From the IMG/VR virus record IMGVR_UViG_2690316210_000013: a DNA stretch of 10,411 nucleotides; one strand, written 5' to 3'. Position 1 is the first letter of the stretch; each line of letters begins with the position of its first letter. Source of the DNA: a virus (lineage: Duplodnaviria; Heunggongvirae; Uroviricota; Caudoviricetes). This document shows positions 1 to 3,000 of this stretch, piece by piece. Position numbers: made by a program.

Positions 1-3000
1 ATTATCTGAACATAAAACACTATCAATAAGTTGGAGTCATTACCCGATATCCTGCTGAGAACATAAACACCCACGGATCGAGGCGTACGCTATCATGTTG
101 CTGTGCACCGCCCAGTTTATAATTGGCGATGGTATCGATATCCATGTACCACACTGGTAGGTTTCAAAAAACACAATAACCAATTGTATTTGAAGCAAAA
201 AACAAGACTTTGAGATGTTTTTTTGTACCTTTTTTTTATGTTTTTAACTGTCTGATTTTATTGAAATCTTTTTTAGTTTTGCAGAAGGAATTTTTTACTT
301 GATTGTAACTTTTTCGTTTTTTTGGGGCTAATTGACGCGCAATGCTGGGCGGGGAGCGCACAGCCAAAAAAACCGAAATTGACCGCTAATTACTGCCAAT
401 CATCATCGCTCTGATTGAGCGTAAATCATTCAGGTTATTCAGTTCTTCCTTCTGCTCTCGCTGACGTCAATAAATCCCATCATTGCGATCAACCTCATCC
501 TTAACCATTGATGCGAGCAGTTCTTCCAGTTTCTGCGCTGATAGCTTTACCTGGTGATCTTCAGCATCTTCCCGGGCTATTGTGGTTCGCGCAGTGGCTG
601 ATTTTGCTGACATCACCACAGGGGGCAGACGGACCATTGAACCATGGCCTCCGGAACAAATAAGGGCAAAAATAACAACCACTATCGAAAGCTCACAAAC
701 TAACCGCAGCACGTTCCTGCATACGACGTGTCTGCGGCATAATCCCAATGATTACTCCCTGACAGGATTTGCAGGCCACTCAATATCAGGTGCAGTTGAT
801 GTATCAACACGATTCAACAATACCCGATATTTATTCCATGCCTCCAGCAACGATCTTTCTTCCTCCGTTGCGATTTCCAGATCTACAGCATCCTGCAGTG
901 GCGCAATATACTCACTGAATTCCTGGATGTAGAACTGTGTGGTGACGGTCTTCCAGCCATTCGGCTCCTGCTGTATCGAAGCATACCAGGCTATTTCAAT
1001 ATCGCTATGCTGCGGCAGCATTTAACCCCTTGTAATTCATCGCCATAATTGATTTAATTCACAAATAAAACTATAATATGGTGAAATTAATGAAAAAAAA
1101 CACAGATGATGGGGCTAAAATTTACACACCACTTACCCTAAAGCTTTATGACTGGTGGGTTTTGGGAGTATCAAATCGGCTTGCATGGGGATGTCCTACA
1201 AAGGAACACCTTCTTCCACACTTTCTGGAACAATATCTTTCGGCGTCAGTGTTATATCCGCTGAAAGCGCCTTACCATTCACCTTACGGGCAGAAGGTAC
1301 CCGACCATTCGCATTATCATTAGCTGCTTTCACTGCTTTCGGTGTCGCGGCAAGCGTTTCAGATGCGCTGTTGGTTGCACTACTGAGCTGGACAATTCCT
1401 TTTTGTGCTGTCGTAGCGTCCTGAGCAGTATATTTCCCGTTAGCAAGGTCATAGGCTGCCTTTACCGACTTTGGCGTTGCCGCCAGCATTTCAGATGTGC
1501 TGTTGGTCGCGTTGCTAAGCTGAACTATCCCTTTCTGTGCTGTCGTTGCATCCTGTGCGGTGTATTTCCCGTTAGCCAGCTCATACGCGGCCTTAACGGC
1601 TTTTGGCGTTGCCGCCAGTGACTCGGAAGTGCTGTTAGTCGCACTGCTGAGCTGTACTATCCCCTTTTTCGTCGTGCTCGCATCCTCAAGCGCCACGGCG
1701 GATGCAATATCCTCTGCCCGTTTTGCCGCTGTCTCAGCGCGCGTTGCTGCAGATTCCGCCGTACTTTTGCTCTGAGCTGCTGCCGTCGCACTACCAGCAG
1801 CCTCTGTCGCCTTCGTGGATGCCGTCGTGGCGCTGCCCTTCGCTGCTGACGCCTGTCTGGTCGCCTCATCTTTTGAAGCAGACGCCGATGATGCCGATGA
1901 CGCCGCCGAACTGGCGGACGATGCGGCAGCCGTTTTTGAGGATTCTGCGCTGGTTTCCGACGCTTTCGCGTTCGTCTCGGATGTCTTCGCTGCGGAAGCA
2001 GACCTCGCTGCTGCGCTGGCCTGTACAGCGGCTTCGCCAGCCTTCGTTGTGGCTGTTGAAGCAGACGATGCAGCACTTTCTGCCGATTTTCCGGCGGCGG
2101 TGGCACTGGCTGAGGCCTGCCCGGCACTTGTTGACGCGGCACTGGCAGATAATGCAGCCGCTGTTTTTGAGTCTGCCGCAGCTGAGGCGCTCTGTCCCGC
2201 TGCCGTTTCAGAAGACCTGGCGTTCGTCTCGGACGTTTTTGCCGCCTTCGCAGAATTTGCTGCCGCCGTTGCCGAGGAAGCTGCGCTGCTGGCGCTCGAG
2301 GCTGCGTTCGTTTCTGATGATTTTGCCGCCTCTTTTGAAGCCGACGCATCCCGTGCTGAAGTGGCTGCTGATTGTTGTGACGCTGCGGCATTCGTTTCTG
2401 ACGTTTTCGCGGCACTGGCGCTGGTAGCTGCCGCGCTTTTTGATGACTCTGCAGCAGCAGCACTTTTTGCTGCTTCACGGGCCTTTGTCGATGCCGTTCC
2501 TGCGCTGGAAGACGCTGACTGAGCCGACGACGCGGCCTGTCCGGCTGACGTGCTGGCGGCAACGCCAAAGNTATCCCTTTCTGTGCTGTCGTTGCATCCT
2601 GTGCGGTGTATTTCCCGTTAGCCAGGTCATACGCGGCCTTAACGGCTTTTGGTGTTGCCGCCAGTGACTCGGAAGTGCTGTTAGTCGCACTACTGAGCTG
2701 TACTATCCCCTTTTTCGTCGTGCTCGCATCCTCAAGCGCCACGGCGGATGCAATATCCTCTGCCCGTTTTGCCGCTGTCTCAGCGCGCGTTGCTGCAGAT
2801 TCCGCCGTACTTTTGCTCTGAGCTGCTGCCGTCGCACTACCAGCAGCCTCTGTCGCCTTCGTGGATGCCGTCGTGGCGCTGCCCTTCGCTGCTGACGCCT
2901 GTCTGGTCGCCTCATCTTTTGAAGCAGACGCCGATGATGCCGATGACGCCGCCGAACTGGCGGACGATGCGGCAGCCGTTTTTGAGGATTCTGCACGGGT

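Follow-up and report, generated by a model that had tools for sequence, protein, structure and literature searches.

The window, a stretch of 10,411 nucleotides, very probably represents the decayed end of a lambdoid prophage carrying two scars of unrelated origin, an old one of the tfaX type and a recent deletion of 2,297 bp. The ancestral layout, which is still found in viable phages, would have been stf, tfa, a small ORF, a methyltransferase gene on the opposite strand, and tfaX. The old scar would have been inherited with the phage, tfaX corresponding to the last ~55 codons of an earlier tfa. The recent scar would be private to the lineage, and is best explained as a deletion of 2,297 bp by illegitimate recombination at a 2-bp microhomology.

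The window was identified as the right end of a lambdoid prophage by ompW, in the yciE-trp region, by a search of 5,426 complete E. coli genomes. Tail genes of the lambda type are encoded on the minus strand in the usual order (K, I, J, lom, stf):

9675-10349, minus strand: K
9136-9777, minus strand: I
5198-8539 and beyond, minus strand: J
4645-5127, minus strand: lom
from 4552 downwards, minus strand: stf

On the same strand, stf is followed by a short tfa-like ORF (752-1021), then by a DUF4376 remnant and an ompW remnant. The features of this end of the window are given below:

1-44, no strand assigned: terminal 44 bp of IS1, matching thousands of plasmid loci annotated as IS1 family transposase
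45-163, minus strand: ompW remnant on the attachment-site side, collinear with the PGAP pseudogene 'OmpW family, missing N-terminus' of ATCC 11775 and SF-166
386-655, minus strand: remnant of a DUF4376-type pseudogene, equivalent to positions 810-1079 of the SF-166 locus (L005), where it is annotated as a pseudogene
752-1021, minus strand: tfaX-type ORF of 89 aa, of which only codons 35-89 (752-917) come from a tfa 3' end
795-998, minus strand: match to Rfam IS009 (RF02111), 112.5 bits, E=1.7e-26, model positions 1-199 of 199, overlying the tfaX-like ORF
1022-1077, no strand assigned: divergent intergenic region between tfaX and the methyltransferase, 56 bp, 25% G+C
1078-1232, plus strand: 5' remnant of a class I SAM-dependent methyltransferase gene of the ybcY family, codons 1-51.7 of 222
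1196-1230, minus strand: foreign Stf tail VPESVEEGVPL and stop, antisense of the methyltransferase remnant
1231-1232, no strand assigned: deletion junction, with a 2-bp microhomology (CA) present in both parents, from a three-way alignment
1233-2570, minus strand: internal part of stf, with an Ala/Ser-rich shaft and three Phage_fiber_2 repeats, up to residue 610 of the 991-aa SF-166 Stf
2571-3638, no strand assigned: scaffold joins, single N's bracketing a 1,066-bp piece which repeats stf already present on both sides

Two intact loci, from ATCC 11775 (L001) and SF-166 (L005), were used as references. Both display the following order:

stf: 2,976-3,108 nt, minus strand
tfa: 585 nt, minus strand, its start overlapping the stf stop
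hypothetical small ORF: 138 nt, minus strand
class I SAM-dependent methyltransferase (WP_000240999.1): 669 nt, plus strand
tfa remnant, a pseudogene with "missing N-terminus": 177 nt, minus strand
DUF4376 pseudogene: 270 nt, minus strand
ompW remnant: 126 nt, minus strand

The Stf frame on the minus strand is open from position 2569, at the scaffold join, to a TAG codon at 1196-1198, and its product ends in ...KVNGKALSADITLTPKDIVPESVEEGVPL before the stop (also given as ...KDIVPESVEEGVPL). An early stop behind the last fibre repeat had been proposed from the sequence alone, and is borne out by the frame and by Pfam: three Phage_fiber_2 repeats were detected in 1196-1696 (minus strand, E=2.9e-60), the stop being located ~35 residues past the last of them. 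While intact Stf goes on with ...LTPKDIGTLNSTTMSFSGGA, the Stf of the window reads ...LTPKDIVPESVEEGVPL instead and then stops. It ends where residue 610 would be, short of the collar and of the gp37-like tip; in an intact relative, the Collar domain covers residues 761-808, and the last 248 residues match the receptor-binding tip of T4 gp37 (PDB 2XGF, E=4e-83). Alignment and translation both agreed with the earlier statement that no frame downstream of the Stf stop continues the fibre. The cognate full-length tfa is not present immediately downstream either, the 585-bp tfa of the relatives lying wholly inside the missing 2,297 bp.

The position of the break was obtained by comparison with SF-166. 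Window positions 45-1232 align to L005 469-1656 (99.3% identity) and positions 1231-2369 to L005 3954-5092 (99.2%), both in the same orientation, and the 2,297 bp in between (L005 1657-3953) are missing in the window. Methyltransferase sequence extends up to 1232 and stf sequence begins at 1231, with only CA in common. The break joins methyltransferase codon 52 (plus strand, ATG at 1078) to stf codon 610, just after "...LTPKDI". The lost segment comprises the last 381 of the 991 stf codons, the gene for the 194-aa Tfa, the 45-aa ORF and methyltransferase codons 52-222. As a Caudo_TAP protein this Tfa is complete, and a match to Tfa of phage Mu (PDB 5YVQ) was obtained with its C-terminus. By fusing the two genes at these codons, the deletion would have deprived Stf of its C-terminal 381 residues, including the collar and the gp37-like receptor-binding tip, and the locus of the cognate Tfa chaperone. 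The last 11 codons of the truncated Stf are, at near-identity, the antisense of methyltransferase codons about 40-51. From these gene structures, it seems that no side tail fibre could be made from the locus, and pseudogene status is probable for the truncated stf, for the methyltransferase stub and for tfaX alike. A deletion scar with a defective side fibre, one of three explanations offered by the sequence-only reading, would be right in kind and wrong in its anatomy, as the scar runs from stf codon 610 to methyltransferase codon 52.

Three other routes to the junction were considered and rejected: an inversion, because neither flank departs from the reference in order or orientation; an IS1-mediated deletion, because the IS1 end at 1-44 lies 1.2 kb off the junction; and recombination between the 216-bp repeats of the tfa 3' end, because these repeats (L005 1126-1341 and 2176-2390) do not include the breakpoints (L005 1656/3954).

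The junction was found nowhere else. Queried as 151 bp, it was absent from the 5,426 complete E. coli genomes, and the exact 34-mer CCACACTTTCTGGAACAATATCTTTCGGCGTCAG was absent from species-representative genomes, viral contigs and metagenome contigs. The 81-aa fusion ORF has no exact counterpart among the proteins on record, and searching proteins for the 51-aa fusion tail gave none either, the latter being a weak negative (18 candidates, coverage of at most 80%).

The junction rests on one draft assembly in which unresolved stf repeats are joined by single N's. These N's, at 2571 and 3638, connect three overlapping stf copies that are 94-99% identical to each other and map to the overlapping L005 intervals 3954-5326, 4249-5314 and 4877-9937. 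Consequently, stf is not one continuous gene in the window, and only 1196-2570 is contiguous with the truncated 3' end. Single-N joins are written by some scaffolders for negative gap estimates, in which case they would be in keeping with a genome that has several similar stf genes. The N-terminal domain of prophage tail fibres (PF08400) is present at 3563-4552 (minus strand, E=2e-72); it sits on another scaffold piece than the truncated 3' end. A run of 46 N's in J replaces 81 bp.

With such a draft, the junction at 1232/1233 might be an artefact of assembly or scaffolding, the contig being chimeric and the real genome harbouring an intact stf-tfa-methyltransferase block. The N's joining non-identical stf copies, the N run in J and the uniqueness of the junction among all collections searched are in favour of this explanation, which is nevertheless considered unlikely. 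The junction is located 1,338 bp inside a contiguous piece and its parents share only 2 bp, whereas it takes shared k-mers of tens of bases for a graph assembler to misjoin. Moreover, the flanks are collinear and in the orientation of the reference, as predicted by a simple deletion, and independent deletions of a similar kind occur at the same locus in the finished genomes of HSP425 and H3.

In HSP425 (OZ547038) and H3, as in the window, the deletion takes the stf 3' end together with tfa, and stf is annotated by PGAP as 'missing C-terminus'. The breakpoints are different: HSP425 is devoid of L005 1418-3179, its flank alignments overlapping by 2 bp as those of the window do, and H3 of about L005 2681-4164. 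Three different deletions in one block across strains suggest that host-range modules are frequently lost in cryptic prophages. The order J, lom, stf, tfa, methyltransferase, short tfa of the window is also found in SF-166, the flanks of which are 99% identical to those of the window, in ATCC 11775 and in phages PhiR26_1, 2G7b and ev243; unlike the window, all five have kept the 2,297 bp. In the three phages, the methyltransferase is followed by the short tfa ORF, and PhiR26_1 harbours full-length stf and tfa just upstream.

Phage lambda PaPa is devoid of side fibres and yet viable, so that the stf scar alone is no proof of a dead prophage. Its stf reportedly carries a frameshift, as is said to have been described by Hendrix and Duda in 1992, leaving laboratory lambda without side tail fibres. 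Lambda PaPa is like the window a lambdoid phage with an inactivated stf, and it shows that plaques can be formed through J without side fibres. It differs in that the frameshift is accompanied by an intact tfa, whereas in the window the receptor-binding tip and tfa are both deleted.

The interval between the tfaX-type ORF and the Stf stop had been described as an AT-rich, non-coding spacer of 174 bp. Its length (1022-1195) and composition (35% G+C against 54% for the window) are as described. The non-coding character holds for 1022-1077; position 1078 is the start of a methyltransferase gene. The remnant (1078-1232) is collinear with the WP_000240999.1 genes of ATCC 11775 and SF-166 (99.3%), and it is 94.5% identical to the ybcY region of K-12. 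A TATAAT-like hexamer before a plus-strand ATG had also been pointed out, and the promoter scan indeed retrieved TTGATT-17-TATAAT at 1049-1077 (plus strand, 10 out of 12 matches), directly before the ATG codons at 1078 and 1090. In the K-12 spacer between ybcY and tfaX, TTGATT-17-TATAAC is listed as a site of the RpoD holoenzyme, with H-NS binding (Shimada et al., PMC3946193).

The 81-aa ORF on the plus strand, which the sequence-only reading had regarded as probably spurious, consists of 51 genuine methyltransferase codons and, after them, 30 that are antisense stf. Because 1078-1232 is the start of the methyltransferase gene, this ORF is the 5' remnant of a real gene. As to its origin, with a gene start of the ybcY type and a promoter, it is therefore not spurious; as to present function, the earlier judgement stands, the catalytic domain being gone. 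In the intact enzyme, the Pfam domains (Methyltransf_12, _23 and _25) start at residues 44-58, with LDIGVGTGF (residues 58-66) as the presumed glycine-rich SAM-binding motif, while the window keeps codons 1-51. Pfam gave no match for the 81-aa fusion ORF, and no Rossmann-type SAM-binding domain was found in the remnant. The stub thus appears to have no catalytic domain left, and the intact promoter of the ybcY type would now read into antisense stf. More generally, AT-rich "spacers" behind phage tail genes can conceal the promoter and the 5' end of an accessory gene on the opposite strand.

The 89-aa ORF was expected to resemble Tfa in its C-terminal part only, and this was verified: residues 31-86 match positions 75-130 of the 131 positions of Caudo_TAP (PF02413, E=6e-25), while positions 1-74, the fibre-binding N-terminal domain of a full Tfa of about 190 aa, have no match in the ORF. 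Its N-terminal 34-36 residues are not Tfa-like, their alignment to full Tfa being spurious, and no full-length protein with the N-terminal 34 residues was found, as the homologues at full coverage are all 82-142 aa long. Residues 1-61 are identical to TfaX (b0563) of K-12 (61/61). The non-Tfa N-terminus is common to the viable phages PhiR26_1 and 2G7b, and the tfaX copies of K-12, 2G7b, PhiR26_1 and the window differ only in 3' truncation or C-terminus. The 89-aa ORF is the tfaX of K-12, an old, widespread and already known remnant.

The same order and orientation are found in the cryptic prophage DLP12 of K-12, where tfaD is followed by ybcY (a pseudogene on the opposite strand) and tfaX (b0561-b0563). 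DLP12 shares with the window the N-terminal identity of TfaX (61 aa in K-12), a ybcY region of 94.5-97% DNA identity and the divergent promoter spacer. In DLP12, however, the 3' end of tfaX is cut short, ybcY is a near full-length pseudogene and tfaD is kept, while in the window tfaX reaches the natural stop of Tfa, ybcY is cut after codon 51 and the equivalent of tfaD is deleted.

The region spanning tfaX and the methyltransferase 5' end (752-1232) was detected at a coverage of at least 80% in 3,433 of the 5,426 complete E. coli genomes, and the same arrangement is present in phages grown on K-12 or E. coli C. At 917/918, an identical boundary is seen in those genomes and viable phages which keep full-length stf and tfa upstream. 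Positions 702-917 constitute a direct repeat of 216 bp (90% identical) of the intact tfa 3' end and about 50 bp downstream of it, and in intact genomes the two copies of this repeat flank the methyltransferase cassette. In tail fibre chaperones, a variable N-terminal domain binds the fibre and conserved C-terminal helices drive trimerisation (PMC9608196); tfaX would have kept the conserved helical region and not the fibre-binding domain. These domain roles leave the tfa 3' end conserved, which makes it a natural recombination boundary. From this, tfaX can be seen as the probable leftover of an earlier tfa after a new stf-tfa-methyltransferase block had recombined in. A module exchange point, another of the explanations offered at the outset, would fit this old boundary only and not the break in stf. 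The event which formed tfaX is older than the 2,297-bp deletion and common to thousands of genomes.

The IS009 match overlying tfaX scored just below the gathering score (112.5 versus 117 bits), and it is clearly homologous sequence slightly under the curated cut-off. According to a 2026 preprint, IS009 and IsrG matches flank the prophage sRNA PasB.

The tfaX-type element is kept by about 63% of the complete E. coli genomes and also occurs in viable phages, which makes a function of its own conceivable, for instance as an sRNA or as a small protein hindering superinfecting phages in their fibre assembly. The element combines a short ORF, which retains of Tfa only the conserved trimerisation helices, with an IS009-like transcript overlapping it and an AT-rich divergent promoter, an H-NS site in K-12. 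If so, the deletion would have left the element and its promoter deliberately untouched. Such a function is regarded as quite improbable.

A single deletion removing the stf 3' end and the tfa 5' half, as proposed in the sequence-only reading, would make the 89-aa ORF the remainder of the fibre's own tfa. The ORF does carry only the C-terminal ~55 residues of Tfa downstream of a truncated stf. The truncated tfa, with its 5' boundary and its non-Tfa N-terminus unchanged, is found, however, below full-length stf, tfa and methyltransferase genes in ATCC 11775, SF-166 and viable phages, and also in K-12 DLP12, and the methyltransferase start and its promoter lie between tfaX and the stf break. This explanation is already refuted by the intact relatives and is given hardly any weight; there would have been two events, and tfaX would not be the cognate tfa. 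Functional relatives with the same gene ends, announced beforehand as the finding that would speak against a scar, do exist for the tfa end and were not found for the stf end.

A natural short-fibre module, also envisaged earlier, in which the truncated Stf and the mini-Tfa function together, is as good as dismissed. In its favour, the Stf frame is open to its stop, and the short Tfa is encoded by an intact ORF that is widespread. Against it, the last 11 Stf codons read the methyltransferase gene in antisense at near-identity and so did not evolve as fibre sequence, the collar and receptor-binding tip are absent, tfaX is devoid of the fibre-binding N-terminal domain, no other protein had the same Stf end (in the weak 18-candidate search), and the C-termini of tfaX vary between K-12, 2G7b, PhiR26_1 and the window as expected for an unconstrained remnant.

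The preferred explanation, with an old tfaX scar and a later deletion, describes an ordinary lineage-private deletion in a decaying prophage, next to a well-known remnant (tfaX and ybcY of K-12), and matters little beyond correct annotation. In the window, stf should be annotated as a pseudogene missing its C-terminus, the 89-aa ORF as a remnant of the tfaX type which is not the partner of this fibre, and 1078-1232 as a methyltransferase stub of the ybcY type. Single-N scaffold joins may also yield a seemingly giant, repetitive stf.

The translation of the DUF4376 remnant contains an internal stop, and Pfam gave nothing significant for the 93-aa ORF overlapping it or for the small ORFs. The IS1 end abuts the prophage/ompW remnant at 44/45, where SF-166 displays yciE-side sequence, and IS1 at this site was absent from every complete E. 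coli genome examined. In lom, a 77-bp internal deletion has shifted the frame, giving a product of 160 aa instead of 199. The lom deletion and the abutting IS1 are further decay in the same prophage.

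The block formed by the side tail fibre gene stf, its assembly-protein gene tfa and the methyltransferase gene is a recurrent decay site, and two other strains carry deletions of their own in it. In strain HSP425 (L003 5523-5593), the region corresponding to 1418-3179 of the intact relative SF-166 (L005) is missing, and a DinI fragment is annotated at the deletion join. Strain H3 (L002 6858-7135) has lost approximately L005 2681-4164, and its break contains about 280 bp of filler without match.

In the window, one N each at 2571 and 3638 links three overlapping copies of the same stf stretch. 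The copies are 94-99% identical to each other and reading frames are interrupted at each N. What reads as a 3.3-kb 'stf' is therefore a product of scaffolding, not a single gene. In addition, a run of 46 N (8548-8593) stands in place of 81 bp of J.

The following features were located in the window:

1-44: IS1, terminal 44 bp, directly adjoining the ompW remnant
795-998, minus strand: Rfam IS009 match over the short tfa remnant tfaX (112.5 bits, slightly below the gathering score)
2065-2313, plus strand: weak Rfam isrG match inside the Ala-rich stf shaft (33.6 bits vs 100)
4645-5127: lom, with a break near 4651-4656
8724-9074, minus strand: ORF of 116 aa between I and J

Comparison of lom with strain H3 and phage PhiR26_1 revealed that 77 bp are missing internally, and the alignments on either side of the break overlap by 6 bp. 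The frameshift yields a product of 160 aa, in which some 40 C-terminal residues of the beta-barrel protein (199 aa) are missing. No nucleotide match in SF-166 or in the second intact relative, ATCC 11775, was obtained for the 3' end of J (5216-5662), which encodes the C-terminal, host-specificity region; the remainder of the gene is 81-95% identical to these strains. From this pattern of identity, the receptor-binding end of J looks like a mosaic exchange.

The 116-aa ORF displays a lipoprotein-signal-like N-terminus (MNKTILFCTIIALTGCKS) and no Pfam match was obtained for it. Since a hypothetical ORF of 112 aa is found at the equivalent position in SF-166, it may represent an accessory gene (moron) within the tail operon.

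A search of 5,426 complete E. coli genomes identified none with IS1 at the ompW-remnant site of the window. The IS1 insertion and the other lesions may hint at a background that is decaying and rich in IS elements, Shigella for example. As for the Rfam matches, a 2026 preprint describes the prophage small RNA PasB as typically flanked by IS009 and IsrG matches, and PasB may thus be located in or near loci of this kind.
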